Source: a virus
Lineage: Duplodnaviria > Caudoviricetes
Virus record (IMG/VR): IMGVR_UViG_3300037255_000025
Span: 105,749-169,748 of that record
Strand: one strand, 5' to 3'
DNA: 64,000 bases
The notes below the pieces were generated by a model. It was not told the origin of the DNA. It did no database searches and worked only from the letters and a program-made list of their open reading frames with translations. Numbering within the stretch: the first letter of the stretch is position 1; each line of letters begins with the position of its first letter. Below, piece by piece: positions 6,688 to 64,000 of the stretch. The translations under genes and the position numbers were made by a program.

Positions 6688-7020
6688 GTGCCCTGGATCA
6701 TCAAGCTCACGGAGCTGGCCACGACGCACTGGCCCTCCCCGGGACGGACGGCGTACCTGCGGGCGTGGCCCCAAGGCCCTGTTGGGTGGCGCGCCGTCCA
6801 GATGACGCACATCGTCGCGACCGACGGCGCGGCCGTTTGGGTGCCAGAGCTGAGCCTGGCGAAGGTGTTCGCCACCGAGGAGATCGCGCGCGCCGCGGCG
6901 GACCGATGCCGGTCCAAGATCGGGGAGGCGCGGTTTGTGCGGCTTGAGTTCGCGGACTGGGCGGGGGAACTGTTGGAGCGAGAAGCCGCCCACGCTGGGG
7001 GTAAGGGACCGCGAACGTGA
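6688..7020 (+). CDS. small paralogue family member
   Basis: PWIIKL...AKVFATEEIA...WAGELLEREAA; stop overlaps tnpB start. Confidence 0.75.
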   Translation: MPWIIKLTELATTHWPSPGRTAYLRAWPQGPVGWRAVQMTHIVATDGAAVWVPELSLAKVFATEEIARAAADRCRSKIGEARFVRLEFADWAGELLEREAAHAGGKGPRT

Positions 7021-8240
7021 AGATCCTCCGAGCGTACAAGACCGAGCTGGACCCCACGGTCTCCCAGACCGAGCAGCTCCTACAGCACGCCGGTTGCGCT
7101 CGCTGGGCTTACAACTGGGGTCTCCGAAGGAAGATCGAGTCCTACGAAGCTACGGGCAAGAGTCCGTCCTGGGTGGATCTCAACCGCGAGCTGAACGTGA
7201 TCAAGAAGCTCCCCAAGGAAGCCGGCGGGGTCCCGTGGATGTACGAGTCCTCGAAGTGTGCCCCGCAGGAAGCGCTCCGAAACCTTGATCGAGCCTTTGA
7301 GGGCTTCTTTCGTCGGTGTAAGAGCGGCTCGAAGCGGAAAGGCTTCCCTCGGTTCAAGTCTCGTAAGCGGGGCATCGGTAGCTTCAAGTTCAGCGGAACG
7401 ATTCATGTAGAAGAGCGACGGGTTCAGCTTCCCCGTCTCGGGAAGATCAAGCTCAAGCAACGCGGGTACCTCCCGACCTCGGGGGTGAAGATCCTCTCAG
7501 CTTCGGTCTCGGAGCGAGCGGGGCGGTGGTTCGTTTCGATCCAGGTTGAACAGGGGCTACCGGATCCCGCACCCAAGCCCACGTCGGTTCTCGGGATCGA
7601 CGTTGGGATCAAGAATCTCGGGGTCACCAGCGAAGGCGAGGTCTTCTCCAACCCGAAGGCGCTCCTGGCAGCGCAGAAGCTTCTCCGAGCGCGTCAGAAG
7701 TCTCTCGCGAGAAAGACCAAAGGATCGAACAACAGGAGGAAAACGGCCGCTAGGGTCGCCCGTCTACACGCTAGGATCTCCAATATCCGGAGGGATTCGA
7801 TCCACAAGATGACGACTGCGATCACCAAGCAGGCGTCGGTTCTCGTGATCGAGGATCTCAACGTCCTTGGGATGCTGAGAAACCACTGTCTCGCCCGGTC
7901 TCTGTCGGATGCCTCCCTCGGGGAGATCCGCCGGCAGCTCACCTACAAGAGCAAGTGGCGCGGGGTCGAGCTTCGGGTAGCGGACCGCTTCTATCCAAGC
8001 AGCAAGAGGTGCTCGGGGTGTGGAGCGGTCAAGGTCTCGCTCTCGTTGGCCGAGAGGGTCTACCGATGCGAGCTTTGTGGTCTCGTGATCGATCGAGACC
8101 TGAACGCTGCCCTCAACTTGAAAGATTTGGCCGGGAGTTCCCCGGTGCAAGCCTGTCGCCCTGGAGGCTCTGGTGCTGCTCTTACGAGCGGTACGAAACC
8201 TCTGGTTGGGCAGGAACCGAACCGGGAGGCTTCCTCGTGA
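7017..8240 (+). CDS. tnpB: RNA-guided endonuclease TnpB, copy 1
   Basis: RAYKTEL N-terminus; RuvC GIDVG / IEDL / DRDLNAA; CxxC-CxxC zinc ribbon. Confidence 0.95.
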   Translation: MKILRAYKTELDPTVSQTEQLLQHAGCARWAYNWGLRRKIESYEATGKSPSWVDLNRELNVIKKLPKEAGGVPWMYESSKCAPQEALRNLDRAFEGFFRRCKSGSKRKGFPRFKSRKRGIGSFKFSGTIHVEERRVQLPRLGKIKLKQRGYLPTSGVKILSASVSERAGRWFVSIQVEQGLPDPAPKPTSVLGIDVGIKNLGVTSEGEVFSNPKALLAAQKLLRARQKSLARKTKGSNNRRKTAARVARLHARISNIRRDSIHKMTTAITKQASVLVIEDLNVLGMLRNHCLARSLSDASLGEIRRQLTYKSKWRGVELRVADRFYPSSKRCSGCGAVKVSLSLAERVYRCELCGLVIDRDLNAALNLKDLAGSSPVQACRPGGSGAALTSGTKPLVGQEPNREASS

Positions 8241-8281
8241 AGCAAACCGGCCCGGAGAACGTATTCGGTCCGTTCTTTCAA
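8129..8281 (+). ncRNA. omegaRNA of tnpB copy 1 (scaffold ends GGAGAACG at 8261; guide TATTCGGTCCGTTCTTTCAA)
   Basis: Identity among four loci ends at GGAG(A/G)ACG; covarying hairpins; 5' boundary approximate. Confidence 0.75.
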
Positions 8282-8764
8282 GTCGTCGACTGCGCGGCCG
8301 ATGCCCCGCCGGCCGCGGCGGTCTCGCCCATCGACTTCCTCAACGCCCAGCTCACCCAAGTGACGCAGGAGCTCGACGAGGCGCTGGAGAAGCTCGAACG
8401 GATGCCGTGCGGTCACGCGCGGTTCGAGCAGCACCGAGAGATGCACGCGAGCGCTACGCCGTACTGCACGGTCTGCCGGATCAACCACGACTACCGGGTA
8501 CTCGAAGAAGAGGAAGCGCGTCTCGACCTAGCGCTCGAGAAGACCCAACAGGAACTCGATCGTGTCCGCACCGCGCTGCAAGAGGCCTCCGTGGTTGCGA
8601 CGAAGGCCACCGATAGGCTTCTGGATTCCCTGCCCGGTCGGGTCCTTCGCCCGTTGCGCGAGGCGGTCGATGCGCTGCGCAAGTCCGGCGACATCGAGGG
8701 CGTGATGAACGCTCAGCGCGACATCATCGATGCAGCGCTTGTGCTGTTCCCAGAAGCAACCTAG
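8237..8764 (+). CDS. coiled-coil hypothetical protein
   Basis: GTGA overlap with tnpB stop; CGH...CxxC motif; start uncertain. Confidence 0.55.
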   Translation: MKQTGPENVFGPFFQVVDCAADAPPAAAVSPIDFLNAQLTQVTQELDEALEKLERMPCGHARFEQHREMHASATPYCTVCRINHDYRVLEEEEARLDLALEKTQQELDRVRTALQEASVVATKATDRLLDSLPGRVLRPLREAVDALRKSGDIEGVMNAQRDIIDAALVLFPEAT

Positions 8765-42194: not shown

Positions 42195-43144
42195 GCGTCA
42201 GACTCCTCTGGCTCAACAACCTGGGGCTCGTCCTCCTCGTCCTCTTCGAGCGGCCCGCCGAGGGCCCCACGGAGGTTCTTCGCGCGCTCCCGCTCCTCCG
42301 CAGGGCTCAGGCAATCGAGCATGCCAGTGCGGAAGTAGAAAACTACCGAAATCCGCTCGTGGCCCCCGTGGTCTGGGTCGCCCGCGGGGCCGACGGCGCC
42401 GTGTATGGGCGTGTTGCCGTGGACCTCGTGCGGGTCGAACGCGATGACGTCACGGTCCTGGAGATCCACCGCGACGCCGAAGCGCGGGAATACCAATTCG
42501 CCCCCGCGATAGCTACCCTGACGCAAGACGCTGATGATGCCGAACCCCTCGGGTAGGTCGCCTGCGTCGCGATGGCAACCGCCAGCGAAGGTGTTGTTGA
42601 CCGTGAGGGTCGTGAAGGGCGTGCCGGGGACCACGTACGCCGGGTGCGTCTTGGCGGCCGCCACCATTTGAGCCGCGTACCGGTCCGGCGCGACCGACTC
42701 GAACACCCGCGCGACCTGCTGGACGTATGGAAAGCACGCGGCCCACTCTTCCGGCCGCTCCATCGAGGCCGCGCAGGCCCGACAGTACGGGATGCGCGCG
42801 TAGCGGTCCGACGAGCCTACGACGGCCGACGCTACAGGTTGACCACCAATGTTCGTGCGAGAAAGCTGGCCCGACGCCAAGACACGCTTGTTGCGACCAG
42901 AGGCGCCGAAGTGCCCACGGTTGTTGGTCTTGCGGTTGCGAAGCCAGTGAAGGAACGGGTAAGCGGCGTCCGCGGCCTCGCGGTTCACGGCGGCGCGCCG
43001 GAGCGTCAACAGGCGCTCGCCTGACGGCTTGTAGACCGTGCAGTCGCCCTCGGCCTTCAGGACGATGTCCTGGGGCAGCATCCGGCGCCCCAGCATGGCC
43101 TCAACCTCTGCTGCGGGCCGCTGCCCTCTGAGCTGTACGATCAC
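42191..43144 (-). CDS. TET/JBP-family 2OG-Fe(II) dioxygenase
   Basis: TPFTTLTVN, HRD.GD (HxD), HEVHGNTP, RISVVFYFR. Confidence 0.88.
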   Translation of the reverse strand: MIVQLRGQRPAAEVEAMLGRRMLPQDIVLKAEGDCTVYKPSGERLLTLRRAAVNREAADAAYPFLHWLRNRKTNNRGHFGASGRNKRVLASGQLSRTNIGGQPVASAVVGSSDRYARIPYCRACAASMERPEEWAACFPYVQQVARVFESVAPDRYAAQMVAAAKTHPAYVVPGTPFTTLTVNNTFAGGCHRDAGDLPEGFGIISVLRQGSYRGGELVFPRFGVAVDLQDRDVIAFDPHEVHGNTPIHGAVGPAGDPDHGGHERISVVFYFRTGMLDCLSPAEERERAKNLRGALGGPLEEDEEDEPQVVEPEESDA

Positions 43145-43884
43145 GCTTCCCCGGGGAGCCCCGCGACAGCCTGCGCAACCGCGGCCAACACGGCCTCCGT
43201 GACGTTCGGCGTACCCCAGGCGGCGTTGAGCCGCTGGCATTCCGCCAAGAACTTCGGCTGCGTCGTCGAATCCAGGTAGAGCTGCACCATGCGAGTCTGC
43301 GCCACCCCCGCGTCAGGCGTGTCGCTACCCTGGTGGAGGTTCTGCCTCGGCTCGTCTTGCTCGCCCAGCGCAGGGTTTTCACCGTCACCGACGGTCGACA
43401 CCTCCATGGGCGCGACCGCCAGCATCTTCATCAGCTCCTCCTCACCGAAGCCGAGGTCGATCGCGCTCAGGGCCTCGCCCCCTTGGTCAAGGCCGCGCAG
43501 CAAGTCCTCCAGCTTCGTCGGGTCCCACTGGCCACGCTTCTGGTTCATCTTGACCGTGAGCTTCTTGGCCTCGGCCTCGGTCAAGCCGTTCAGGAAGACC
43601 ATCGGACCGGACTTCAGCCCCAACTCGGTCGCGGCAGCCCAACGGTGCTCCCCGTCTACAATCAGGTCACGCTTCGCCCCGGTCTCGTCCGTCCCCCAGA
43701 CAAGCAGCGCCTGGGACGCGAGCCAGCCGTCCTCGAGCAGGCCGTGCTTCAGGCTCTCGGCCTGGGCGGGCGTCATGACGTTCGGATTGTACCCGTTGGG
43801 CTTGACGCTCTTGAGGGGTCGCATCACGACCTCGCCCACGACCCGGGCCTTCTTCTCCACCGCGGGCTCTTGCTCGACGCTCAT
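43141..43884 (-). CDS. ParB/Srx N-terminal domain protein
   Basis: PNGYNPN, IVDGEHRW, N..RG. Confidence 0.85.
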   Translation of the reverse strand: MSVEQEPAVEKKARVVGEVVMRPLKSVKPNGYNPNVMTPAQAESLKHGLLEDGWLASQALLVWGTDETGAKRDLIVDGEHRWAAATELGLKSGPMVFLNGLTEAEAKKLTVKMNQKRGQWDPTKLEDLLRGLDQGGEALSAIDLGFGEEELMKMLAVAPMEVSTVGDGENPALGEQDEPRQNLHQGSDTPDAGVAQTRMVQLYLDSTTQPKFLAECQRLNAAWGTPNVTEAVLAAVAQAVAGLPGEA

Positions 43885-43899
43885 GCCCGCACTGTCTCA

Positions 43900-44009
43900 G
43901 AGACGTCTCAAACTTGCAACGTTCTCCGGGGGGTTCAGCAAGCTGATACCCGGTTCGGTTCCTGCCCAACCAGAGGTTTCGTACCACGCTTACGCGCAGC
44001 ACCAGAGCC
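43900..44009 (-). ncRNA. orphan omegaRNA-like element without tnpB (guide TTGCAAGTTTGAGACGTCTC)
   Basis: 90-nt homology (43920-44009) to tnpB 3' ends, with compensatory stem changes, ending GGAGAACG. Confidence 0.75.
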
Positions 44010-44181
44010 GCCCCGGTACCGCCGCCCTGGCTTCCGCCTCTGTATTGAATACCCAGGCGAACTCAACCAACGGCGTGAACGAACGCGCGGCCGTGAGATC
44101 GCTGTTGCGTAGGTAGTAGTAGTACCCTGGCTTCTGTTCCGGACGACCTAGTTCACCCGCTCTGTATCGGACGACCCACAC
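43990..44181 (-). pseudogene. paralogue family member truncated by the omegaRNA element
   Basis: VWVVRY...YYYYL...AWVFNTEAEA, then runs into the omegaRNA; lacks the VVxLAD tail. Confidence 0.6.
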
Positions 44182-44189
44182 GGGGGCGG

Positions 44190-44945
44190 CTACTTGGAGC
44201 AGAGCGCGGGCGAGAACAACTTCCCCGGCCACTGCACGGCGAAGCCCGCTCGGGCGTCTCGGACACGCGCCTCGGCCGCGACGATGTCGTCGCCCGCTTC
44301 CTTGACCTCGTAGAGGTTGACGACGCCGAAGCGCGCGCCGTTCGCCCGGATGTGCGCGAGCCGGGCCTGCTGATACCGGAGGTTCGCGAGGGCGTCGCAA
44401 GTCGCACGCGCGTCGTTCGCGATATGCTCGGCCGTCCTTCGGACCATGCAAGCCCGGTCGGGTCGGCACGCCCGCTCCTCCACCAGGAGCTTCTCGTAAG
44501 CGTTGAGCGCCATCGAGAGCTTCACGTCGTCCGGCGGGGCCTCGTCGCACGTGTCCTTGAACGCGCTCCTCGCCAGGGTGAACCGCTCACGCGCGTCCGC
44601 TAGATCCCGCTCGCGCGACTCGATGTCGCCGAAGAACGGGTCGATGCGCGTGACGATCTCGACCGACGCCAGCTTGGCCTCAAGCGCCTTTCGGGCCTTC
44701 AGGCACTGCATCGCCTGCTGCCCGTCCGCCACGCCCTTGGCCGCCATCGCGAGGGCCTGCTGGTTGCGCGCGGCCTGTTCGTCACGCATCCGCTGGAAGT
44801 TGGCCTCCCGGGCCTGCGCCCGGGCCTCGGGACTCGGGCCGGTTGTGTGCGGTGCGGGGTTGCGCTGCCCAACCGTGATACCGCCGAAGTCGCAACCTGC
44901 GCACGCGAGCAAAACGAAGAAGAGACCTAGCTGTAGCGGTTTCAT
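44190..44945 (-). CDS. lipoprotein
   Basis: MKPLQLGLFFVLLACAGC signal/lipobox. Confidence 0.7.
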   Translation of the reverse strand: MKPLQLGLFFVLLACAGCDFGGITVGQRNPAPHTTGPSPEARAQAREANFQRMRDEQAARNQQALAMAAKGVADGQQAMQCLKARKALEAKLASVEIVTRIDPFFGDIESRERDLADARERFTLARSAFKDTCDEAPPDDVKLSMALNAYEKLLVEERACRPDRACMVRRTAEHIANDARATCDALANLRYQQARLAHIRANGARFGVVNLYEVKEAGDDIVAAEARVRDARAGFAVQWPGKLFSPALCSK

Positions 44946-45409
44946 CAGACGGTTCCTTTGTTGGTCGTGACCTTGCGGCGCTGCTGCACCGGGCGCACGG
45001 GTTTCGGGTAAGTCATTGACGAGCCGTCCGCGAACCTATCGCGAGCCGTCTTTGACGGGGTCTGCGAGGGTCGCGCCCAGGAGAACGCCTGGAACAGCAC
45101 GGACCAGACGTCGTGGTAAACGTCGGCTCGTGCGTGCCCTTGCTTCGAAGCGACTGCGTTCTTGAAGTTGTCGTACTTGAGCCCCTCGAGCAGGAACCGC
45201 CCGACGAAGGCCGCGAGCGCGTCCCGCTTGACGACGACCCGGAACGGGTAGTCAGTCACGGCCGACGTCAGGACCTTCGAGGTTTCGAGCCCCGCGCGCC
45301 GCAACGCCAGGAGGTCCTCCCGGACGCGGGACCGGACCAACAGCTCATCCGCCGCCGCGGGCTGCTTGGAGACGACAGAGAAGACACCAATGGGCAAAAA
45401 AATCCACAC
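44945..45409 (-). CDS. conserved-looking phage hypothetical protein
   Basis: WIF...FSVV..LLVRSR..DL..TDYPFR..Y.NFK. Confidence 0.6.
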   Translation of the reverse strand: MWIFLPIGVFSVVSKQPAAADELLVRSRVREDLLALRRAGLETSKVLTSAVTDYPFRVVVKRDALAAFVGRFLLEGLKYDNFKNAVASKQGHARADVYHDVWSVLFQAFSWARPSQTPSKTARDRFADGSSMTYPKPVRPVQQRRKVTTNKGTV

Positions 45410-45507
45410 GACGATGCTCAACCTTTCACGTAGCCCCTGGTGCCTCCCAATCAGCCGCGCGAGCCACCCCAGCGTGAACGCCATCCGCGGTGAGAGGCGC
45501 GGCCATG

Positions 45508-46712
45508 TCAGGCGTACCCCGCGTACCGATCCTCGCGGTCGCTGTCCCCGTCGCACTCGCGGCACAGGCCCACCTCCGGCGCCTCGGAGGCCGTCTCGCG
45601 CGTGCCATCGACGAGCACGAATCCGCGCGTGACGGCCTTGCGGCGGGGGTGCCGCACGCAATGTCTACGGTCCGCCTTGCCGCGCGCGGCCTCGCTCTCC
45701 GTGACGCGGATCACGAGAACACCTTGCCGTCTACGACGTAGACGGCCTCCGGCTCGACGCCGGGCGGCGCCGCCCCGTCCGGGACGTAGACCCAGACATC
45801 AATGGCTGGGTCTAGATACGCGAGGACCAGGCCCGTTCCGTGGATCTCGTTGAGGGATGCCTCGACGAGATCCTGACTTGGATCTCCCGCCAGGACGGCG
45901 GCGTCCTCGCCTCTCATGACGATTCCGCAGGAATCGCCGATGGCCTCCTCCCGGAGGCGCTGATCTGCTGCGGAGCGCGGCTCCGCGTCGTGGGACGCGA
46001 CCCACGCGAGCGCTTGGCGGTTCGTCACGATGTCACCTCCGTGAGAGCAGCGAGAGCCGCTCTCTTGTCTTTTCTCGTAGTCCCCACGTGTTCCCACATG
46101 CCGGAGCCCTCCACTCCGTCGTCGTGGGACAACCGACGGACCCAGCCGTCCATGCGCTCCGTGAGCGGCTGCCCGAGCCGGCGCGCGCGCTCCTCACGAG
46201 GCAGCGAGAGCCACGCCGCGAGCAGCGCCGTGCGAAGCACCCGGCCCTCCCCAGGGGGGCCAGCGTACCGCTCGCTGAGGTAGCAGCGAGGGTCACCGCA
46301 GTCGCCGCGGTCGATGCCGCAGGCCATGCATTCGTTGCTCTTCGCGATGCACGCGCTATGCGCGGGCATCCCATCGACGGTGGTGTCCGGGTCGATCATG
46401 ATCTTATTCGCTTCCTTCTGCGCCTCGGCGCAGCACAACCGGCTGGGGCGAAACGACGGACCCGCGCTAGTCGCGCGCGAAGCTATGGAGGTCGCCGAGG
46501 CGGACAACGATCTTGCGCCCGTCCGCGGTCGTGACGTCGACCAGCGTATCGGGCGACTGGGCGTGGAAGGCGAAAACGTCCGACATCTCGACCTCGACCT
46601 CGGTGTGACCCGCGAGGCTCGTCGCGCCCGCGGCGTCGGTGACGACCTCGCCCCCAAGGAAGCAGCAGTGGATCGAGGTCTCGGTCACCAGGTTCGTCGT
46701 CTCGTTGCTCAT
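45508..46712 (-). other. small hypothetical ORFs (46467-46712, 46025-46399, 45711-46028, 45508-45714)
   Basis: Mostly coupled ORFs downstream of a sigma70-like promoter. Confidence 0.55.
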
Positions 46713-46763
46713 GTCTAGAACTATAAGACGAGTTAGGCAGAGCGCAAGTGTTAGAAGAGAATT
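46713..46763 (-). promoter_or_regulatory. sigma70-like promoter, copy 1 (TTGCGC-N16-TATAGT-N7-ATG)
   Basis: Conserved with 59871-59921, including upstream AATTCTCTTCTAACAC. Confidence 0.8.
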
Positions 46764-46778
46764 AAGTTCAGGGGACGT

Positions 46779-47291
46779 CTATCTGGGTTCCCTCCCACAC
46801 GGCCGCCAGACGACGACGACGCTCGCGAAAAACCCGCTGGCTCGGTACGGCCCCCCGGTCAGGAAGCGAACGCGGCCCCGGATGTACCGGACCTCGGCGT
46901 GACCGATCACGTCCTCGTGCCACCACGCCAGGTCCGTCGATGCAGGCAGCAGGCCGACGACGAGCGCGCCGCGCGCAGCCTCGTTGCGAGCCTTCCTCGT
47001 CCAGGCGTAGACCTCGCGCCCGTAGGGCGGATTCATGAAGACCCTCTCTCCCGACCAACTCGCCGAGAGCCCGTCCGACGCCTCGTCGAAGTAGCGCGGA
47101 CACTTCGCCGTCTGGGTGGTCGCGCAGGGGTCGAGCGTGAAGGCGAACTCCGCGTGAAGCGGGTCGAAGACCTCCGGCGGCGTCTCCCAATGCCGGCCAT
47201 TTCCGTTGTACCGCCCATTGTTTTTCGCGCGCGCTCCGCCGAGTACCGCGGGGTTGTCGGTCGCGGCGATAGTTCTGCGGTTCGCACTCAT
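46779..47291 (-). CDS. phage N6-adenine DNA methyltransferase (Dam-like)
   Basis: WETPPEVF, FTLDPCA, FMNPPYG, LLPASTD..WW. Confidence 0.88.
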   Translation of the reverse strand: MSANRRTIAATDNPAVLGGARAKNNGRYNGNGRHWETPPEVFDPLHAEFAFTLDPCATTQTAKCPRYFDEASDGLSASWSGERVFMNPPYGREVYAWTRKARNEAARGALVVGLLPASTDLAWWHEDVIGHAEVRYIRGRVRFLTGGPYRASGFFASVVVVWRPCGREPR

Positions 47292-47728
47292 CAGGGGACG
47301 TACTTCCCGGCCGCTCGGCGGCGCAGGACCAGCTCGCCGAACGCGTGCTCGAAGTCCTGCCAGTGCTCGGCGTTGCGCTCGTGGAGCGCGATGAGGTCGC
47401 GCTCGCTGACGTAGGAACCGTCGTCCATCGCGGTGTCCATCCACGCCATCGCGCCCGGGATGTCCTCCTCGGGCGGGTACGGCTTCGGCTCCGGCGGCGA
47501 CAAGCGCGGGGGCTCACGCACGGTCGCACCCACGAAGCCCGGGACATCCATGGTCTTGGGCCCCGTCGCGTGCTGCGTGTACTGCTTGAACCAGAGTCCG
47601 CGCCGGGAGCGCGTCAGCGGGTCGTCCGCGCCCTCGTCCAGCTCGATCTCCTTGTGGAACAGCTCGCCCGCCGCCTTGGCGAGCGACGCGTCCGTGTAGC
47701 CCAGGATCGTCAGCTCTGCGTAGTACAT
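47291..47728 (-). CDS. hypothetical protein
   Basis: GGAGG and GGGTAAG upstream; coupled to the methyltransferase. Confidence 0.6.
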   Translation of the reverse strand: MYYAELTILGYTDASLAKAAGELFHKEIELDEGADDPLTRSRRGLWFKQYTQHATGPKTMDVPGFVGATVREPPRLSPPEPKPYPPEEDIPGAMAWMDTAMDDGSYVSERDLIALHERNAEHWQDFEHAFGELVLRRRAAGKYVP

Positions 47729-47768
47729 CTTGAGGCCTCCGCCGGTCCCTTACCCCCCGCGGGCCCCG

Positions 47769-50700
47769 TTAGTCGAAGTTGATGCCGCCTGCCTTCATCG
47801 CCTTGAACAGGCTCTCGCGGTCTTGGTACCCGTAGGTCTTACCCTTGTACTGGACATCGTGGTCCTCCTTGGGCAGCACCAGGCCGTTGTTGTGTCCCGG
47901 CCCCGCGATCATCTCGCGCTCGTGCTTGTAGGTTGAGGAGAACGTGCCGTCGTCCAGGACCTGGTCGAAGGCGGTGTGGTCGATCGGGCACTTCCACCGG
48001 AGCAACACACCATTATGGCCGGCGAAGAAGTCCTTGGAGTGCTTCTCTCCCATCGACCAGCTCGCCAGCTCCGCGTGTTTCTTGATCGTGACGGTGCTGA
48101 CGGTGTCGTCCTTCCAAGCCTTGGCCATCTCGATGGCGGTCTCGGGCTCGTACTGCATGCCCCGCGTGAGGTCGAAATGCGTTGGGGCCTGGGCGTCCTT
48201 CACGCCCACATGCTCCAGCATCGCCTTCCACCGCGCCGCCCGCGTCTCGACCGCCGCCGCCATCGTGGCCTTGGTGTTCGGCAAGACCGGCTGCCGAGGC
48301 GCGCCCTTCTCGGTCACGTCCGCGAACGCGGCGTAAACACGTCCGTGGGCACCGCCGTCGGAGTGGCCCTGCGCGGTCCACTCCTTAACGATGCTCTTGA
48401 TCGCGTCGTGGGTCGCGCTTGAGAGCCCGACCCCCTTGTTGACCGCGGCGATGGCTTTGTTTTGCTTCGTGGAGCTGACCGGTAGCTCGGCGAGCGCCGC
48501 GGCAACCTTGTCGTGGGCACCGCCGTCGATCGCGTTCTTCAGGCTCAAGACCTTCTCGGGCGGCGCGACCGGCTTGGGCTTCGACGCCTCGTACGCGTCG
48601 CTCGCCTCCTTCAAGAGGCGCCCGCGGGTCTCCAGCATCTCGACCACCTTGGCGTGGTCCTTGGGCGCGAGGTCCGGGATGCGGTCCTGGACGTACTTGG
48701 TCCAGCCGCCCGGCGCGGCCGCGAGCTTCGTGATGCGCTCGACCTGTTGCCGGAAGCCCGGGGCCTCGAACGCGTTCTTGACGCCCGCGGCCTCGAGCAC
48801 CTTCGCGTACTGGGGCGCGACGGACTTGTCGAAGCTGCTCGTCAGCTCTCCGACCTCGAGCTTCCCGGGCTTGTCACCGCCCTGGGCCTTGAACAGCAAC
48901 ACGCCGCCGTTGTCGACGCGCGCGATCGAGCCGTCCGGGAGCTTGAGGACGTTGTCGCCGCTATACCCGATGACGTCCCGGTTCGCCAAGAAGACGTCGG
49001 CGGCGAACCCCTGGGCGACCTCGCGCGCGTCGCCCTTCGATGGCGACAGCCCCAGCGGCAAGCCCCCCGGGAGGATCGTCGACGCGTACAGCGTCTTGCC
49101 CTCGTGCTGGAAGACTTGGCTCTCCGGCGCCTTCACGCCCAGGTCGTTATAAAGCTGGTTGGCGAGGTGCTCGACGTGGGCCTGCGACGGGTTCGCATAC
49201 TCCTTGATGTAGCGCTGGACGCCGTCGGTCCCGAGCCAGAAGCCGCTCTTGCCCAGGGCGTTGCTCCCGGCGGCGCCGCCGGTCTTGGTACCCAGGACGG
49301 TCGTGCCGACGCTCTTGACGGGCGGGGCGTAGTCCCGGCTGAGCAGATCGGGCTGCTTCGCCAGCTTGGGCCCCAGCTCCGCGAGGATCTTCTTGTCGCG
49401 GTCCATGTTGAGAAGCCCCGCGGCGTCCTTCAGCGTCGTGAGCTTGACCGCTTGGGTCTCGGCCATGCCGCCGGGCGGCGCCTTCAGGCCGTCCCGAGGG
49501 TCACCGCCGACCCGCTGGGCGATGTAGTAGCGGGTCGTGCTGACGCTGCCCTTGTAGTCGCCCATGAGGCCGACGATCCGCACCTTCAGCCCGCTCTCCT
49601 CGTGGACCTCCTTGAGCGCGTTCTGCTGCGGCGTCAGGCTCTCGCCTGCGTCCATCTTGCCCTTGGGCCATGTGTTCTGCGCACCACCGAAGTGGCCCTT
49701 GGGCTCGTAGATCCACATGCGCCCGTCAGGCTCCATGACGATGCAGCCGGTCGAGATGTGCGACCCGGTCGGCATCGGTCCCTCGCCGACCTCAACGTCC
49801 TGGGTGTGCTTCCAGAAGCCCCCCGCCTCGGAGTTCAACGGCACGCCGTTCAGCGTCGTCGGCGCTGGCGGTCCGAGAGCGATGCCATCCGCGGAGACGC
49901 CCTTGTCCCCCCAGGCGCACAGTGCCTTCGGGTCCCCCAACGGGTTCGGGGGCTCCGGGGGCGACACCACGGGATCGGGCGGCGCCGGGGCTGCGACCTT
50001 CGCCGCATCGGCCTCGGCCCGGAGCGCCGCCTTGATGGCGGCCCCGTTGGCCTCGTTGTGCGCGTTGGCGGCGTTCACCAAGGCGTCGACGCCCGCGAGC
50101 CCGTGCTTGCCGTTCGTGGCGGACTCGGTCTTGATCGCGTTGACCAGCGCCTCGCGCGCGGTCTCGTGCGCGTCGGCGGCGGCCCGGTAGACCTCCGGGG
50201 TCTTCTCCAACTCCGCCTTGGCGGACAGTCTGTTGGCGTCGCGGCTGGCGTTGATCGCCGCGACCATCGCGACCTCATGGGCCGCGTGTTCCGGCTTGAT
50301 GTCGCCCGCGCCCTTGACCAGGTAGTTCTTGCCCGCCCGGGCGTGAAAGTCCTTGGCCCGCTGGGCCGCGGCCGCGGTCATCTCGAGCTTCTTGAGCGCC
50401 TTGGCGTGCTGCTCCGGGGGCAGCGTCTTGAGCGTGGCGTCGATCTTCTTCAGCAGCGCCTCGTGGGCCGCGGCCGTGATGACCTTGCCGGCGACGACCT
50501 TGCCCAGCGCTTCGGCGTTCTGCGCGGCCTTCTTGGCCCCGGCGATGAACTTGCCGTGCTCGTCGCGGATGACCGTAGATTCGTCGAAGTCGCCCGCCTT
50601 CTCGACCGCGAAGCTCAGCTGCACCGGGGCCCACGCGGCGCGCAACGCGGCCTTGGTAACCTCGGGGTCAAGCGGGGGTGCGTTCGGTACGGGTGCGCCA

Positions 50701-51505: not shown

Positions 51506-52108
51506 TCATGTGGTTGGGTTGGGCTGGGCCGTGTCGAGGAACCCGATCAGCTCCGACAGCAGGTCCTGAACCGGCTGGGAGGCGTCGAACTGGTGCCCAA
51601 GATTCGGCCCAGTGCCCCAAGCCTCCGCAAACCGGCGGGACTTCGTCGCGCGGCCCAGCATCCAGTTGGGGTTCTGGTTCGAGCCCCGGGCGGCGCGCCT
51701 CTCCGCCAACAACGGCTCAGGCGCGACCAGGTGCGCGACCGCGAGCGTGGCCCCGGGGCCCGGTCGACATTGGCCCGCTACGGAGCTGCGGTCGAAGAAC
51801 CGCGCGACCTTCTCGAGGCTAAACCGGTCACCGTCGAAGACGGTCAACGGGCAGCCGTGGAGCGCCGGGTCCGCGGCCCATGAGTCCAGCGAGGCCTCGA
51901 CGCCGTTGTACGGGACCGTGTCGGCGCCGTCGAACGTTCCGCCCGTGTAGTGTCCCGCCGCGACCATAGCGCCCGGCACGACGGTCCACTTGGGCTTGGG
52001 CGTGCCATAGCGAAGTTGACCGGAGTCGAGCCAATCGAGCAGCGCCCGAACCAACGTCGTCTTGCCGCACCCCGGCGCACCAACGACCCATAGAATGGTG
52101 GGCGTCAC
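51506..52108 (-). CDS. P-loop kinase, 5-hydroxymethyluracil DNA kinase-like
   Basis: GAPGCGKTT, GHY.GGTFDGAD, FDGDRF, RR.ARGS.QN..W..GR.TK. Confidence 0.75.
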   Translation of the reverse strand: MTPTILWVVGAPGCGKTTLVRALLDWLDSGQLRYGTPKPKWTVVPGAMVAAGHYTGGTFDGADTVPYNGVEASLDSWAADPALHGCPLTVFDGDRFSLEKVARFFDRSSVAGQCRPGPGATLAVAHLVAPEPLLAERRAARGSNQNPNWMLGRATKSRRFAEAWGTGPNLGHQFDASQPVQDLLSELIGFLDTAQPNPTT

Positions 52109-52338
52109 GACCACGACCGCGACCGCGACCACAACCCCGACCCCGACCGCGACCCCGACCCCGACCACGACCACGACCACGACCTCGACCACGACCGCGA
52201 CCGCGACCCCGACCGCAACCGCGACCCCGACCTCGACCCCGACCACGACCCCGACCGCGACCTCGACCGCGACCCCGACCACGACCCCGACCGCGACCTC
52301 GACGACTCGAAGCCTGCTCGCATGACCGCCGCGTTCAC
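52105..52338 (-). CDS. Ser-Arg/Gly/Trp dipeptide repeat protein
   Basis: SRSGSWSG repeats encoded by 6-nt repeats; coupled to both neighbours. Confidence 0.65.
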   Translation of the reverse strand: MNAAVMRAGFESSRSRSGSWSGSRSRSRSGSWSGSRSGSRLRSGSRSRSWSRSWSWSWSGSGSRSGSGLWSRSRSWS

Positions 52339-52749: not shown

Positions 52750-53931
52750 TTACCCCGAGCCCGACGGCTCACCCTGGGTCCTCAGGACCGTCGGCTCGTA
52801 CCCGACCTCGGCAGCGTACGCGGTCGCCGCCTTGCGGCCCGCGACCTGCCCGTCGCGGTAGCCGCGTTGGTACGCCTCGGTGTCGGCGCCGCGCTCCACC
52901 CTCATCGCGCGCCTCCCGGCACCGTCCTGGAACCCGCGGCAGTACAGTTGGTACAGCTCCGCCGGTCGCCAGGCTCGCGGCGCGGCGTCAGTCAGCCCTT
53001 GGGCCAGTCGACGCGTCACGCGCTCGCCCCGGCGTCGGGATCGACAGCCTTGTGGCCGCACACGCGGCACGTGAGGGTCATGCCTGGGCCGTGCTGAACG
53101 CCACACGCCGGGCAGTCGTGGAACCCGTACCGGAGCAACCTCCGCTGCCGCTCCTCGTTCGCGATCCGCATCCTTTCGATCCACGCCGGAGAGCCCCAAT
53201 CCTCCTCGTACACCCAACCGGGCGGACGCTTCCAGCCCGGGTTGCGCTTCGGGTCCGCCGTCATCGGACGTCCTCCGCGGCGAGTTCTTGGGCGAAGTAG
53301 TCCACGCTCGGTTCGGCGCGGACCTCGAAGCGCTGCTCCGGCGATCCCTCGCGGTCCTCCGCGACCATCACCACGTAGGTCGCGCCGCGCGCGAGGTCGT
53401 AGTCGCCGCGTTGGTCGTAGTTCTGGCCCCACTGTCGGGCCGCGGCCTCAGCGCTGACGGCTCGGATTGTCCCTGCACCGTCGCGGCCGCCGCCCAGCTC
53501 CGGACACCACACGATCCACGCCGTCACCGTCATTTGTCCACCTTCTTCGTCAGCTCAGCCTCGGCCAACATACGCGCGGCCGCGAAGCCCGTGGTCTCGT
53601 ACTCGACGCCGTCGAGCCGCACGAACTCTTCGGCCGCACTGGCGCCTTCGTGCTCAGCCCGTGAATAGAGGCTGAACGGGTACCACGACACCGTCCGGTA
53701 CGTGAACGACACGGTCCGACCGGGCTTATCGTAGCAGTACAGCGTAACCGACGCGCGTTGGGGTACCGCGTCGAACCGTTCCCACAGCGTCGGGCGGCCC
53801 GGCTCGTGCTCCGACCAGACCCAGATGACGCCGTCACACTGTCGGTCGCTTTGCACCCGGGTCGGGCAGAACTTCGTCCCCGCGACCTCGACGGAGAAGT
53901 TGTACCTCACGTACAGCAACGAGGGCGCCAC
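52750..53931 (-). other. hypothetical ORFs (53530-53931, 53261-53533 and two smaller downstream)
   Basis: Coupled ORFs downstream of tnpB copy 2. Confidence 0.55.
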
Positions 53932-54078
53932 GCGCTACCCCTTACGTTCTCCGGGGCCGGTTTGCTTCACGAGGAAGCCTCCCGGTTCGGTTCCTGCCCA
54001 ACCAGAGGTTTCGTACCGCTCGTAAGAGCAGCACCAGAGCCTCCAGGGCGACAGGCTTGCACCGGGGAACTCCCGGCC
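53925..54078 (-). ncRNA. omegaRNA of tnpB copy 2 (scaffold ends 53945; guide TAAGGGGTAGCGCGTGGCGC)
   Basis: Shared 3' boundary with the other copies. Confidence 0.75.
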
Positions 54079-55190
54079 AAATCCTTCAAGTTGATAGCAG
54101 CGTTGAGATCCCGATCGATCACGAGACCACAACGCTCGCATCGGTAGACCCTCTCGCTCAACGAGAGCGAGGTCTTCACCGCCCCACACCCAGAACACCT
54201 CTTGCTGCTTGGGTAGAAGCGGTCCGCGGTCCTTAGCTCGACCCCACGCCACTGACTCTTGTAGGTGAGCTGTCGGTGGATCTCCCCGAGGGAGGCGTCC
54301 GACAGAGACCGGGCAAGACAGTGGTTTCTCAACATCCCGGCGACGTTGAGGTCTTCGATCACGATTACTGACGCCTGCTTGGTGATCGCAGTCGTCATCT
54401 TGTGGATCGAATCCCTCCGGATATTGGAGATCCTAGCGTGCAACCTCGCGACCTTCTGGGTCGCTTTCCTCCTGTTGTTGGACCCCTTCTGTTTCCTCGC
54501 GACCGCTTGTTGTCTCGCTCGGAGAAGCTTTTGAGCCGCCTGGAGAGCTTTTGGGTTCCTAAAGACCTCCCCCTCGCTGGTGACCGCCAAGCTCTTGATC
54601 CCAACGTCGACCCCGAGGACCGACGTGGGCTTGGGTGCGGGATCCGGTAGCTCTTGCTCCACCTGGATCGAGACGTACCAACGTCCCGCCTTCTCGGAGA
54701 CCGAAGCTGAGAGGATCTTCACCCCCGAGGTCGGGAGGTACCCGCGTTGCTTGAGCTTGATCTTCCCTAGCCTTGGGAGCTGAACGAGACGCTCCGAGAC
54801 CTTGATCCCCTCGCTGAACTTGAAGCTACCGATGCCCCGCTTACGAGACTTGAACCGAGGGAAGCCTTTCCGCTTCGAGCCGCTCTTACACCGACGAAAG
54901 AAGCCCTCAAAGGCTCGATCAAGGTTTCGGAGCGCTTCCTGCGGGGCACACTTCGAGGACTCGTACATCCACGGGACCCCGCCGGCTTCCTTGGGGAGCT
55001 TCTTGATCACGTTCAGCTCACGGTTGAGACCCACCCAGGACGGACTCTTGCCCGTAGCTTCGTAGGACTCGATCTTCCTTCGGAGACCCCAGTTGTAAGC
55101 CCAACGAGCGCAACCCGCATGCTGTAGGAGCTGCTCGGTTTGCTTCACCGTAGGATCCAGCTCGGTCTTGTATGCTCGAAGGATCTTCAC
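53967..55190 (-). CDS. tnpB: RNA-guided endonuclease TnpB, copy 2
   Basis: 407 aa, highly similar to copy 1; RuvC D/E/D intact. Confidence 0.95.
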   Translation of the reverse strand: MKILRAYKTELDPTVKQTEQLLQHAGCARWAYNWGLRRKIESYEATGKSPSWVGLNRELNVIKKLPKEAGGVPWMYESSKCAPQEALRNLDRAFEGFFRRCKSGSKRKGFPRFKSRKRGIGSFKFSEGIKVSERLVQLPRLGKIKLKQRGYLPTSGVKILSASVSEKAGRWYVSIQVEQELPDPAPKPTSVLGVDVGIKSLAVTSEGEVFRNPKALQAAQKLLRARQQAVARKQKGSNNRRKATQKVARLHARISNIRRDSIHKMTTAITKQASVIVIEDLNVAGMLRNHCLARSLSDASLGEIHRQLTYKSQWRGVELRTADRFYPSSKRCSGCGAVKTSLSLSERVYRCERCGLVIDRDLNAAINLKDLAGSSPVQACRPGGSGAALTSGTKPLVGQEPNREASS

Positions 55191-55999
55191 AAGAGCTTTC
55201 GACCCTTACCCGGCGCGGCGGACTTTCGGGCCCGCAGGACCTTCACCAGGTGCCAGATCCAACCGTCCGGGACCGCGACGCCCCAAAGCCGCTGGGACAC
55301 GCGGCTCAACAGGCGGTTGTACTCCGTCGTTACATCTACGTACTCCGTCGTTACATCTACACCGCCAGCCGTGCCGCTAACCTCGACGGCCCCGTACCCC
55401 GCCAGTTCCTTCACCACCTCGGCCCAAACCCACGCGGCGTCCGCGTCCCGCGACAACACCAGGCCACCCCCGACCGGCGCATGTTTGTGGCCTGTGTAGT
55501 CCACGTTTCCCAACCGTTGACTTCGTCGGCTCGTCGCGACCGACACCGAGGGCATCGTTAGGCGGATCGAGTGCGGTCTCTCTCGCCACGGGCACCAATG
55601 AGCATGAATCCCCCCAGGAAAGCGGGGATTAGGTCCAACCACGCCGCAGTTGCACACGCGCTGCTCCGCCTCAAGCATCCGATGGGCCTCGGCGGCCCGT
55701 AGGTCCGGCAGCAACGCGCACCAGACCCGACGCACGACCTTCCGGACGTCAAGACCCGCCCGGGTCCATAGGGTCTCCTTGCGGGCGGCTTCCTCGGCGC
55801 GCGTCGACTTGGCCCGGAGCTTTTGCTTGGCCGCCGTCTGGACCCGGGCACGCTCGCGCGCAGGGCACACGAGGCGAACCAGCCGGTGGTCCTGGGCCTT
55901 GGTGCTACACGGCAAGCAGTACGCGCGGGCATCGTCCGCGCGAGGGCGTTCGGGCGCGAGCTTCCCCACGCGGCACCGGGGACAGACCCAGCGCTTCAC
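55187..55999 (-). CDS. Zn-finger hypothetical protein with a 21-bp tandem duplication
   Basis: CPRC..CLPC; VDVTTEY twice; stop overlaps tnpB start. Confidence 0.6.
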   Translation of the reverse strand: MKRWVCPRCRVGKLAPERPRADDARAYCLPCSTKAQDHRLVRLVCPARERARVQTAAKQKLRAKSTRAEEAARKETLWTRAGLDVRKVVRRVWCALLPDLRAAEAHRMLEAEQRVCNCGVVGPNPRFPGGIHAHWCPWRERPHSIRLTMPSVSVATSRRSQRLGNVDYTGHKHAPVGGGLVLSRDADAAWVWAEVVKELAGYGAVEVSGTAGGVDVTTEYVDVTTEYNRLLSRVSQRLWGVAVPDGWIWHLVKVLRARKSAAPGKGRKLL

Positions 56000-59921: not shown

Positions 59922-62900
59922 ATCTTCCGCCAAGCCTCAGCATCACGCTCGAGTACGGGATCTCGACACCGTCGACCGTAACGGTGCCCCACCGGGACGC
60001 CCCCGCCGCCCGCTCGAGCAGCACGTCGGCCTCGTGGGCCGGCGTCAACTCCCCGGCACAGGCCACGTGCTCAGCGCAGCAAGCCAGCGCGGCCTCCTCG
60101 GTCTCGAACCGGGTCGCGTCCATGAAGAGGCCCCCGTGGGCCACGACGCAGCCCGACCCGCGGAAGTGCCGCAGGAAGGCGCCGCCACGCACCCAGGGCC
60201 GGGCGCACCTCAAGACCCAGAACATCAGCACCCCCTGCGCTTCCTCGCCGTGGCTCGGTCCTGGTGCGCGATTTCACGCTCCAGCATCTCCTCGGCCTGG
60301 TCAACGACGTACAGATCAGGCATACCGCTCGACGCCGCAAACGCCTCCGCGGCCTCAAGGGTGTCGAACGTCAGACACCCTTGCTCCCGCGAAACGAGGG
60401 AGAAGATCATCGGACCCCCGACCCAATCGGTCCTAACCGCCAGGTAACAGACGTCGTTGTGGCGCCGGGCTTTGACGAGGAAGCTCACGTGAGCCCCAGC
60501 GCCTTACGGACCCTGAGCAGGTACGACAACGTAATCGTCGCGCTATCCAACCGGGTACGCGCGACCTCCCGATCCAGCATCCGCGCGGACTCCCCCCGGC
60601 GCCACGCTTTCTTTCGGCTGCGGCTGCTCAAGAGTTCACCAAGCGCCAGCCGATATTGTCGGCGAAGGTGAGCGTGCTGCCGACCGGAAGATGTGCTGCC
60701 GTCCGGTGGATACTGCGGTTGTGGCGCACCGCGACGTCGGCCTCGCCCGGGCCCAAGTTGACGATGCTGACGGCCCCCGGCGGCTCGTGAACCAACGGGG
60801 TCCAGCCCACGCCCGCGACGCCAGGCCAACCCGGTCGCGCGCCCGCCGGGCCTCTTGCGCCGTCGAGAACACGTCAGCTTGGTCTGGGTGGTGCGTGATC
60901 ATGACCTGGCGCTTGGGCCCCAGCCAAAAGTACCGGGTTCGAAACGCCCGGTCTGGCGGGAAACGCAAGACCCACGGCATCAGGAGCACCTGACGACCAG
61001 CAACGGAAAAGCCTCATTTTCCAGCAGCAACGCCGCCAGGTCCAGAACCTCGACGGTCCCGTACGGCGCCGTGGTGTCGTGTCTTTGCATAAACGCCGTC
61101 GCGTCTTGCTCGGTACGGAAGACGACGGCATCCGACAGCGCGCCCCACCACAAGACGTCTCTTCTCTTCGGCGTCACGACGAAGTCCCCGGGGGCGGTGT
61201 GAACGACGAGGTAGCGCCAGGGGCGATCCTGGTGGTCGGGACCGAGGGCTCTACGCAGGACGAACGGCACGACCGCTACCTTACCTCCGAGAGCCAAGCT
61301 TCGGTCGCCAACATGGCGTCCGCCAGTGCGATCGGGACACAGCGGCTTAGACCCCCCAACCGAGGCGCCGCCCGACGCCAGGCCGCAAGCGCCGCAAGCG
61401 CCTCGCCCTCAGTCAGGAATCCCATCGCGGCTGCCGGGTATTCCGTGACGTTGAGCCAAGGCTCCTCGAGCGGCGTTCTCTTGTAGAACCAACGAACGTA
61501 CTCAGGCTGCCACGAGTCCTGGCGACCGGCGGGCTCGAGCAAGAGGAGCCAAGTCATCGCCTGGCCCTCGCCGCCAAGGCCTGCCGCTCCAACGCGTGTT
61601 CCAGCATCTCGCCTGCAAGGTCCACGACCTTCCACCGGTGGCCGCGAAGCGCGACCAACGTGGGCGCCGAGGCCTCGGCTTCTTCCCGGGTATCGTACAC
61701 GCGGGCCGACGTTGGCCGAGCGCACCACGTCCCAAGCGGACCGAGGTACGGCGCGTAGCTTGGTGTTCGCTTGATAACCCACACGGTCAGGACCCCGCGG
61801 CGCGTGCCGCGTTTCGCGCAGCGTAGTCGAGCATCGCCCCGGCCTGGTCCACAACGTCCAAGTCGAGCCCCGGACGCCACGGGCAAGACTCGATGTAGTG
61901 GCAAGCCTGATCCGCCGTCTCGAACACGTCAGCCCCACCGGGCGGCCCCCAACCGAACGACACCCGGGGGGCCGTCGTGTAGTAGTAGTCGTGACGGGCG
62001 CTCCCCACGCTGATGAGGATACGGCGGCGGATGATGAACATCAGGTCTCCCCCGCGGCCCAGCCCAACATGGCGTCAGCCAAGCGAACAACGAACAGGCG
62101 CCGACCTTCCTTGTTGTGGCGCTTCACGTAGTCCCCCGCGGCCTCGGCGGTCTCAAACGTCAGGGCATTGCCCGGTGACCCCCAGGGGCTCATGGCCGCC
62201 GTCCAGTAGTCGTGGCGCACGGCTCCCATGAGGTCAGTGACCCGAATTTGGCGGCAAATGACCCAACTCATCCCGCCTCGCGCGCCAGCAGTTCGTCCGC
62301 GAGGTCCACGATCTCCAACGGGCCCGAGATCCGCAATCGTTTGATGAACACCCACGCGGCCGCTACATCCTCGAACACCTTCGCGTCGGACGCCCGCGGC
62401 GTGACGAACCACGACAGCTCCCCCGACGCGACGAGTTGGTCATCCACGACGTAGCTGTATCCCTGACGATACAGGGGTCGCTCAGTGTCGCGCGGCGTAC
62501 GCTTGATGCAGTACGGCACGATCAAGCTCCCCCACGCTCGGCTTCTCGTTCCAAGAGCACCGCCGCGAGGTCCACGACTTCGTAGAGGTCGAGGCCGATT
62601 GTGCGCGCGGTCCACCGCGCCTGGGCCTCGGTCTCAAACCGCTCGGCGAACAAGGGGAGCGGCACCAGACCGGTTTTGTCCCACGTGTTGGGTCGGACGT
62701 AACCCCAACCCTGGTTTGTCCAGCCCCGCAGTTGCACACGTAGGATGAACATCACCGGGCCGCCTTCCGCGCTTCTCGCTCCAACAGGTACTCCGCGAGG
62801 TCGCACACCTCGACGGTCGAGATCGTGCGGTTCGCAATCTGCCACGATCGACAGTAAGCCCGCGCCGCCGCCTCGCTCGCGAACTCCGTGGCGTCAGAGA

Positions 62901-62994
62901 CCCAGTGGGACCAGTCTGCAACGGCGCGTTCGCCCCGCAGGTACAGCGGGAAGGGTGACTGGCCTTGCGACGGCATTCGTACGATCCAAGTCAC
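59920..62994 (-). other. array B: 11 tandem paralogues (62752-62994, 62522-62752, 62268-62519, 62041-62271, 61787-62041, 61554-61784, 61276-61557, 60980-61270, 60636-60980, 60225-60488, 59920-60225)
   Basis: Each has a W/F-V/I-hydrophobic N-strand and A..F.T..EA; most end VVDLA..LLE.EA; coupled or abutting start/stop codons. Confidence 0.8.
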
Positions 62995-63140
62995 GACGGT
63001 CCCTTACGTCCTCCGGGGCCGGTTTGCTTCACGAGGAAGCCTCCCGGTTCGGTTCCTGCCCAACCAGAGGTTTCGCGATCCTCTTACGAGAACCGCCAGA
63101 GCCTCCAGGGCGACAGGCTGACACCGGGGAACTCCCGGCC
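62987..63140 (-). ncRNA. omegaRNA of tnpB copy 3 (scaffold ends 63007; guide TAAGGGACCGTCGTGACTTG)
   Basis: Shared 3' boundary; distinct but base-pair-preserving hairpin. Confidence 0.75.
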
Positions 63141-64000
63141 AAATCTTTCAAGTTGATAGCAGCGTTGAGATCCCGATCGATCACGAGACCACAACGCTCG
63201 CATCGGTAGACCCTCTCGCTCAACGAGAGCGAGGTCTTCACCGCCCCACACCCAGAACACCTCTTGCTGCTTGGGTAGAAGCGGTCCGCGGTCCTTAGCT
63301 CGACCCCACGCCACTGACTCTTGTAGGTGAGCTGTCGGTGGATCTCCCCGAGGGAGGCGTCCGACAGAGACCGGGCAAGACAGTGGTTTCTCAACATCCC
63401 GGCGACGTTGAGGTCTTCGATCACGATTACTGACGCCTGCTTGGTGATCGCAGTCGTCATCTTGTGGATCGAATCCCTCCGGATATTGGAGATCCTAGCG
63501 TGCAACCTCGCGACCTTCTGGGTCGCTTTCCTCCTGTTGTTGGACCCCTTCTGTTTCCTCGCGACCGCTTGTTGTCTCGCTCGGAGAAGCTTTTGAGCCG
63601 CCTGGAGAGCTTTTGGGTTCCTAAAGACCTCCCCCTCGCTGGTGACCGCCAAGCTCTTGATCCCAACGTCGACCCCGAGGACCGACGTGGGCTTGGGTGC
63701 GGGATCCGGTAGCTCTTGCTCCACCTGGATCGAGACGTACCAACGTCCCGCCTTCTCGGAGACCGAAGCTGAGAGGATCTTCACCCCCGAGGTCGGGAGG
63801 TACCCGCGTTGCTTGAGCTTGATCTTCCCTAGCCTTGGGAGCTGAACGAGACGCTCCGAGACCTTGATCCCCTCGCTGAACTTGAAGCTACCGATGCCCC
63901 GCTTACGAGACTTGAACCGAGGGAAGCCTTTCCGCTTCGAGCCGCTCTTACACCGACGAAAGAAGCCCTCAAAGGCTCGATCAAGGTTTCGGAGCGCTTC
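63029..64000 (-). CDS. tnpB: RNA-guided endonuclease TnpB, copy 3 (5' end outside window)
   Basis: Near-identical to copy 2; RuvC D/E/D intact. Confidence 0.95.
   Translation of the reverse strand, partial: EALRNLDRAFEGFFRRCKSGSKRKGFPRFKSRKRGIGSFKFSEGIKVSERLVQLPRLGKIKLKQRGYLPTSGVKILSASVSEKAGRWYVSIQVEQELPDPAPKPTSVLGVDVGIKSLAVTSEGEVFRNPKALQAAQKLLRARQQAVARKQKGSNNRRKATQKVARLHARISNIRRDSIHKMTTAITKQASVIVIEDLNVAGMLRNHCLARSLSDASLGEIHRQLTYKSQWRGVELRTADRFYPSSKRCSGCGAVKTSLSLSERVYRCERCGLVIDRDLNAAINLKDLAGSSPVSACRPGGSGGSRKRIAKPLVGQEPNREASS

Follow-up and report, generated by a model that had tools for sequence, protein, structure and literature searches.

TnpB cassettes without a transposase in a start-proximal motif of a phage genome, and their possible spread by RNA-guided homing

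Introduction

Three copies of a tnpB cassette lie in the final 64 kb of the 169,748-nucleotide (nt) virus record IMGVR_UViG_3300037255_000025 (G+C 67.5%). This 64,000-nt stretch is hereafter the window, and positions refer to it unless marked as genome positions. The closest described systems are the IS607 elements, in which TGGG is both the target of TnpA and the target-adjacent motif (TAM) of TnpB, the guide-RNA scaffold ends in UCGG, and self is discriminated from non-self at position -3 (CboIStron, bioRxiv 10.1101/2023.11.20.567912; ISFba1, PMC11061315); AGGAG and GAGGG TAMs are reported for other IS607 TnpBs. The phage cassettes resemble these systems in TnpB lineage, in having a right-end scaffold, in presenting a core dinucleotide at both junctions and in their G-rich flank motif. 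The difference between flank and scaffold end also falls at -3, being TGGG/UCGG in the IS607 systems and GGGT/ACGT in the phage cassettes. Unlike the IS607 systems, the cassettes have no TnpA of this kind anywhere in the phage, their core is GT instead of GG, their left end is reduced, and their ends imitate the halves of a sequence motif of the phage.

In comparison with the restorative homing of IS200/IS605 TnpBs (PMC10055086; ISDra2 TnpB, PMC8612924, PDB 8H1J/8BF8), the cassettes are alike in that the guide matches a vacant site and the TAM lies in the left flank, yet their vacant sites are in other phage genomes and are not post-excision donor joints. The free-standing homing endonuclease genes of T4-like phages (Seg and Mob; intronless homing, PMC13565253) share with them a nuclease gene placed between conserved phage genes, polymorphism among relatives and an expected spread in mixed infection. 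Unlike Seg and Mob, the cassettes would have their target read by RNA, so that each copy retargets by position, and their insertion point is a repeated, presumably regulatory motif.

Insertion sequence (IS) elements with an outward -35 in their end form hybrid promoters. The right end of the phage cassettes similarly carries an upstream motif half at the correct spacing from the junction; unlike in the IS case, the motif is the phage's own non-canonical one, and the element's own gene likewise receives a completed motif, through the left end. In the literature, no description was found of TnpB cassettes adapted to phage promoters. The explanation we favour, and consider somewhat probable, is that these are transposase-less, IS607-derived TnpB cassettes which sit in the phage's start motif and spread by RNA-guided homing. 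The anatomy of the cassettes, their ancestry, the empty alleles and the guide matches are direct observations, and are given first.

Anatomy and ancestry of the cassettes

The genome contains three intact copies (c1, c2 and c3), all inside the window, each with a tnpB open frame of 407 amino acids (aa). Cassette c2 spans 1,264 nt (53944..55207, minus strand) and is composed of a left end, tnpB (53967..55190, minus strand) and a guide-RNA scaffold, with GGGT on its left and ACGT at its end; its limits are based on the empty alleles in contigs L014, L015, L016 and L105 and on alignment of the copies. Cassette c1 (7003..8262, plus strand; tnpB at 7017-8240) is preceded by GGGT at 6999-7002. Cassette c3 lies at 63006..64000 on the minus strand and continues at genome 211-~536, its tnpB running from 63029 to the record end and then on from the record start. 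Start and end of the record share an overlap of 210 nt (2 mismatches), within tnpB c3 (window 64000 / genome 1-210), and contig L100, from a near-identical phage of another sample, spans their join. Hence, the genome is circular or permuted, although labelled linear, and c3 can be read whole.

When searched against Pfam, the TnpB protein matched OrfB_IS605 (1e-31), the Cas12f1-like TNB domain and the helix-turn-helix (HTH) domain. The PDB search aligned it with ISDra2 TnpB at 3e-66, with the catalytic D/E/D positions of RuvC in register, and these are intact in c2. The ratio of nonsynonymous to synonymous substitution rates (dN/dS) between tnpB c1 and the other two copies is 0.17-0.21, and c2 and c3 are identical across the central 720 nt of the gene. 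The left end preceding tnpB measures 14-17 nt in c1 and c2, and ~75 nt in c3.

A scan of metagenome contigs for TnpB relatives found 337. The closest ones (L019-L032; 57-73% aa identity) are in elements of ~1.9 kb that start with GG and end with ...GGAGAACGG, and they have a Resolvase-domain TnpA just upstream of tnpB (the upstream open reading frame (ORF) of L023 matches Resolvase at 5e-16). The left flanks of these elements end in RGGG or AAGG. Together with the published TGGG and AGGAG/GAGGG TAMs, this supports an earlier note on this DNA, made from the letters alone, which had linked the cassettes with IS607-type TnpB and expected a G-rich TAM. No match to the serine recombinase family PF00239 was found anywhere in the 169,748-nt genome, cassettes included. 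By homology, the phage cassettes are non-autonomous derivatives of an IS607-type element that lack a transposase and reside in a single phage lineage. The best match among GenBank phages is LR745208 (63% aa), in an unrelated low-GC context; a megablast of 5 kb against GenBank phages gave no useful match, and IMG/VR scans, for which both flanking proteins and a 24-nt word from the scaffold served as queries, gave nothing useful.

Guide-RNA scaffold and junctions

The guide-RNA (omegaRNA) scaffold of c2 (53944..54113, minus strand) overlaps the 3' end of tnpB and ends in ...GGAGAACGT, as delimited by alignment with 13 IS607 relatives. Applied to this alignment of the last 170 nt, RNAalifold predicted 25 pairs, 15 of which show compensatory changes. 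These pairs indicate a real guide scaffold which, by homology with the relatives, stops at ACGT; it is conserved in all full copies. No Rfam family was found for the scaffold region (E<=1). The scaffold terminates in ACGG in 13/13 relatives, but in ACGT in 7/7 right ends of the phage (i.e., those of the three full copies and of four remnants: an orphan right end in the window and a solo scaffold, a mini-element and a fossil elsewhere in the genome), all seven sharing ...GGAG(A/G)ACGT.

Given that the right end stops at ACGT, the guide starts with AAGGG and the flank motif is GGGT. The earlier note had proposed GGG as TAM and TAAGGG as guide seed, which is supported as to the G-rich motif and one base off as to the split. 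The dinucleotide GT is found in the left junction (GGGT) and in the right end (ACGT), each of the three empty alleles having it a single time, and in the phage cassettes it probably plays the part of the relatives' GG core, with GGGT as the predicted TAM.

At the left junction of c2, GGGT (55211-55208) is followed by AAGGGTCG, and the GTG of tnpB is at 55190. At the right junction, the scaffold end reaches 53944; AAGGGGTAGCGC comes next, and the following gene has its GTG at 53931. The right junction of c3 is the same, ACGT extending to 63006 and the GTG of the gene being at 62994, while AAG does not follow the right ends of c1 (ACGT, then ATTCGG) and of the in-window orphan (ACGT, then TGCAAG, ~43919). 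The earlier note had read all four in this way. That AAG might itself belong to the right end was rejected, because it is missing in c1 and the orphan and is found in the empty alleles.

All left flanks end in GGGT(A), and all left ends begin with AAGG(G). On the right, AAG directly follows the end in 5/7 cases; only 15% of GGGTA sites have AAG, which yields a binomial P = 0.0013 if GGGTA sites are hit at random. A start codon is found 12-13 nt after the T in 4 of these 5. Moreover, AA at -16/-15 from the right junction is present in 4/4 phage right ends, of two structurally different types, against 0/13 relatives, a result in line with the former proposal that the right end supplies the upstream half of the motif.

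The start-proximal motif

The heptamers GGGTAAG, GGTAAGG and GTAAGGG are the most over-represented of the genome, with 30-38 occurrences observed against 6-10 expected. At positions -16 and -15 from GGTAAG, A is found in 35/64 and 31/64 sites, in comparison with a background of ~16% A, and this enrichment lies exactly 14 nt before GGTAAG. The arrangement AA-N16-TAAG likewise forms a peak of 34 sites, against ~6 at other spacings. In 12/26 full sites, the first start codon of an ORF supported by its third-position G+C (GC3) occurs within 8-40 nt past the T, usually at 12-14 nt (background 3%). The motif reads AAC-N12-GGGTAAGG, 12-14 nt ahead of start codons. The motif is thus real, as the earlier note held, but not with the spacing that it gave (AA-N12-GGGTAAG), given that AAC-N12-GGGTAAG corresponds to AA-N13-GGGTAAG.

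The three bases before TAAG are GGG in 19 and AGG in 6 of 25 natural AA-N16-TAAG sites, and ACG precedes TAAG in 5 cases, all of them TnpB right ends.

At c2, the resident upstream half of the motif (55208..55227, minus strand; AA at 55226-55225, GGGT at 55211-55208) now precedes tnpB and is identical in the empty alleles. On the other side of the cassette, the rebuilt motif (53941..53962, minus strand) is made of AAC-N12-ACGT from the right end joined to the flank AAG, and is predicted to serve the 133-aa downstream gene (53530..53931, minus strand). The 80-aa gene downstream of c3 (62752..62994, minus strand) has its GTG 12 nt after the T of ACGT. The upstream gene of c2 (55187..55999, minus strand) gains four codons out of the cassette's left end, and its TGA overlaps the GTG of tnpB; in the empty allele, it ends at TAG. 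To judge from the motif statistics, we infer that both patched motifs may act as promoters.

Empty and filled alleles

Contigs of other samples encode close homologues of the protein from the gene downstream of c2. In four of these contigs (L014, L015, L016 and L105) the c2 site is empty, i.e., the flanking genes are adjacent, and the junction, GCCGGGTAAGGGGTAGCGCGTG, is what removal of the cassette would leave. The same site is filled in L104, from another sample, and filled alleles are found in other samples in L099, L100 and L104. Including the c2 site, the full copies occupy three insertion sites. L015 and L017 have an empty allele of site X, which is made of the left flank of c1 and the right flank of c3. 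In L015, L017 and L018, CTGGGGGTAAGGGACCGTCGTG stands ahead of the gene downstream of c3; the left part of this sequence is the left flank of c1, and the relatives are colinear at X, with genome 110745-112759 running directly into 168773-168457. The empty alleles with the predicted junction that the earlier note had called for therefore exist, both at the c2 site and at the right-junction site of c3. The homology of the flanks between carrier and relatives is 85-98%.

Site Y, made of the left flank of c3 and the right flank of c1, is empty in L101, where the junction is CGGGTA followed by TTCGGTCC. In this contig, the upstream genes of c3 are directly followed by a gene for a 189-aa Cys-rich protein (L101 4001-4570), of which codons 24 onward are the right flank of c1; in the studied phage, the cassette splits this gene after codon 23. 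The left junction of c3, which the earlier note had left to be read beyond the window, presents GGGTA and lies inside the 189-aa gene, at a site whose empty allele has no motif. A left junction of c3 at GGTAGGG, 17 nt before its GTG, was rejected, since the empty allele places it ~60 nt further upstream.

The three sites also tell which parts of the motif the element contributes. Resident DNA provides the first motif half, AA included, at the c2 site and X, where the left end brings in a few codons together with a stop overlapping the GTG of tnpB. At Y, the empty allele has no motif, and the insertion creates GGGTAAGGG, so that the second motif half upstream of tnpB belongs to the element. AAGG is brought by the element, so that the motif is made even where none was. 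The idea that the promoter as such is the target was not supported, given that the target is GGGT(A) and one insertion is inside a coding gene.

A deletion scar in L014 (423-480), in which the left end and the initial 25 nt of tnpB are joined to DNA from further downstream, was observed at a motif that precedes a different gene in the studied phage. It indicates that cassettes have occupied further motif sites in relatives.

Guide matches

The predicted guide template is the 20 nt after ACGT. That of c2 (53924..53943, minus strand) covers what remains of the motif, then the spacer and, from the next gene, the GTG and first codons. The template of c3 (62986..63005, minus strand) matches the empty allele of X at 20/20 positions in L015 and L017, beside GGGT. 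At the c2 site, the first 16 nt match in L015, L016 and L105 and the first 15 nt in L014, and at Y the first 18 nt match; all these matches are preceded by GGGT. Each guide occurs once in the carrier, where it is preceded by ACGT. In silico, the predicted recognition sequence is therefore the empty site, disrupted in the carrier by ACGT in place of GGGT. At the solo scaffold next to the primase gene (o85), the relative's allele has GCGT and an indel in the guide match.

Separately, a further motif site in this genome (genome 136207, window ~30459) also contains the first 12 nt of the o85 guide, preceded by GGGT.

Proposed mechanism and alternatives

Under the homing explanation, a cassette would insert directly after GGGT; given that GGGT is the first half of the motif core, most surviving insertions would split the motif. 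The left-end AAGG and the resident upstream half would then form a complete motif for tnpB, and the left end would also bring the stop codon overlapping the tnpB start. The right-end AAC-N12-ACGT and the flank AAGG would form a near-copy of the motif for the next gene. The initial ~16-20 nt of the right flank would serve as the guide, which would thus match the uninterrupted site of cassette-free relatives, where GGGT precedes, while the carrier would be spared by the ACGT that precedes the same sequence. When carrier and empty phages infect together, TnpB would cleave the empty allele close to the downstream gene's start codon, and the cassette would be copied in as the break is repaired by recombination with the carrier genome. 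The TAM identity, cutting, homing and promoter activity proposed here are deduced from sequence; the proposed cutting of empty alleles and copying by repair fit the published model closely.

Several points weigh against this explanation. Presence and absence alone cannot separate gain from precise loss, and the seven right ends may stem from events that are not independent of one another. Homing alone cannot create new sites, above all Y; these require a step resembling transposition, and the genome encodes no serine recombinase. The intragenic insertion at Y, at GGGTA followed by TTCGG, implies that promoters are not required as targets. A search with the Pfam families sigma-70 r2 and r4_2 found no phage sigma factor; given this and the lack of an Rfam match, the term promoter refers to position and architecture. 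The rebuilt motif may be weak or inactive, since C replaces a G that is invariant in all 25 natural sites. Finally, a thymine hypermodification of the phage might block cutting.

The rival that fares best, although we consider it unlikely, is that the cassettes are passive relics, placed earlier by a serine recombinase acting in trans with a preference for GGGT, so that TnpB no longer cuts anything relevant and the association with promoters reflects survivorship, the insertions that persisted being those that left adjacent genes expressed. The genome has no TnpA_S, decayed copies are many (four remnants and the L014 scar), one insertion is intragenic, and the G+C of tnpB, 0.60 against 0.675 in the genome, suggests import, all of which such relics would explain. 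They would explain less readily three intact 407-aa copies with the dN/dS given above and an intact catalytic triad, a scaffold conserved in all full copies, and guides that still match the empty alleles of relatives beside GGGT.

We give little credence to the possibility that TnpB and its guides, solo scaffolds included, are a domesticated weapon or regulator, kept mainly to damage or silence cassette-free competitors at gene starts and not for copying. The guides do cover gene start regions in related phages, the solo scaffold o85 is complete, and a review cites interference competition by a phage intron endonuclease. With 85-98% flanking homology, however, repair would copy the cassette anyway, which makes the two outcomes hard to separate, and the o85 site of the relative presents the GCGT and indel described above. 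It is equally improbable that the motif is not a promoter but a stop/restart, processing or protein-binding signal, the cassette simply preferring GGGTA, since, although the motif overlaps the upstream stop codon at several sites (TAA at X, TAG just after the c2 site) and the sigma factor search was negative, the fixed AA 13 nt before GGGTAAG and the fixed 12-14 nt to the start are as for a -35/-10 pair with leaderless or short-leader starts, and some sites then have a separate GGAGG before ATG.

Implications

Homing of the cassettes, if it takes place, would make this a natural case, documented by sequence, in which an RNA-guided nuclease cassette without transposase has the layout of a phage homing endonuclease gene, with carrier and empty alleles in environmental relatives. 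It also suggests how the cost of insertion can be avoided, as the two ends mimic the halves of the host's gene-start signal. A compact TnpB with an unusual GGGT motif is predicted, and the long-standing question of the role of tnpB in phages becomes testable with defined targets.

A more speculative extension, which we consider unlikely, is that the cassette family co-evolved with the transcription signal of the phage into a multi-locus RNA-guided drive, the core having changed from GG to GT, the target having become the first half of the promoter core, and both ends having become promoter halves. Were this true, any promoter of a related phage would be a potential landing site, functional after invasion, and solo scaffolds left by decay, such as the complete one by the primase gene, would supply this nuclease with additional guides, moving towards a guide array carried by the phage.

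Inversion between c1 and c3

Copies c1 and c3 are in opposite orientation and their flanks are exchanged, which equals an inversion of the ~55-kb segment between them; window 8263-63005 (genome 114011-168753) is indeed inverted in comparison with L017, L018 and L101. Recombination may really have produced this order. Alternatively, because the copies share an identical stretch of ~180 nt, the assembler could have picked one of two possible isomers; a search for the exact c1 protein gave no further contig and thus no independent assembly of the region. The arrangement points to TnpB copies as possible drivers of large inversions in phage genomes.

A 175-aa ORF (8237..8764, plus strand) begins within the right end of c1, at a GTG that overlaps the stop of tnpB, and continues into the remainder of the 189-aa gene (P0006 compared with P0007; empty allele at L101 4060-4085). 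This restart GTG is in frame with the remaining gene because the right end of c1 is one C shorter than those of c2 and c3.

Remnants and other observations

Four remnants of the tnpB family were found, one in the window and three elsewhere in the genome. The former is the orphan right end with a truncated scaffold (43919..44030, minus strand), which ends in ACGT. The solo scaffold o85 (genome 85117-85296; L008 1501-1680) is complete, lies after the primase gene and is fused to its end. The mini-element (genome 12423-12557, minus strand; L009), of 190 nt, retains the left end, a tnpB piece of ~150 nt and the right end's final 35 nt, and is 12 nt before an ATG. The right-end fossil, of 20 nt (genome 8321, minus strand), is just upstream of a gene, also 12 nt before an ATG.

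The phage also carries two complete IS605 elements, with Y1 TnpA, tnpB and classic hairpin ends, and a further solo tnpB (genome 19597-21097, 34484-35988 and 27541-28716; L005-L007, L011, L012). These tnpBs are only 30-40% identical to the c1-c3 family and, having classic hairpin ends, are unrelated to it. Mobilisation of the cassettes by the Y1 TnpAs was rejected, given they belong to the two complete IS605 elements, whose tnpBs are only 30-37% identical.

In L015, the alignment jumps from genome 153964 to 148200 (window 42452-48216), so that this relative may lack or have replaced ~5.7 kb, including the orphan right end. In the gene upstream of c2, the 21-nt unit GTAGATGTAACGACGGAGTAC is tandemly duplicated (window 55336-55377, minus strand) and present as a single copy in L016. 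Lastly, window 52072-52330 contains a long run of 6-nt/12-nt repeats (CGACCN units) inside an ORF.

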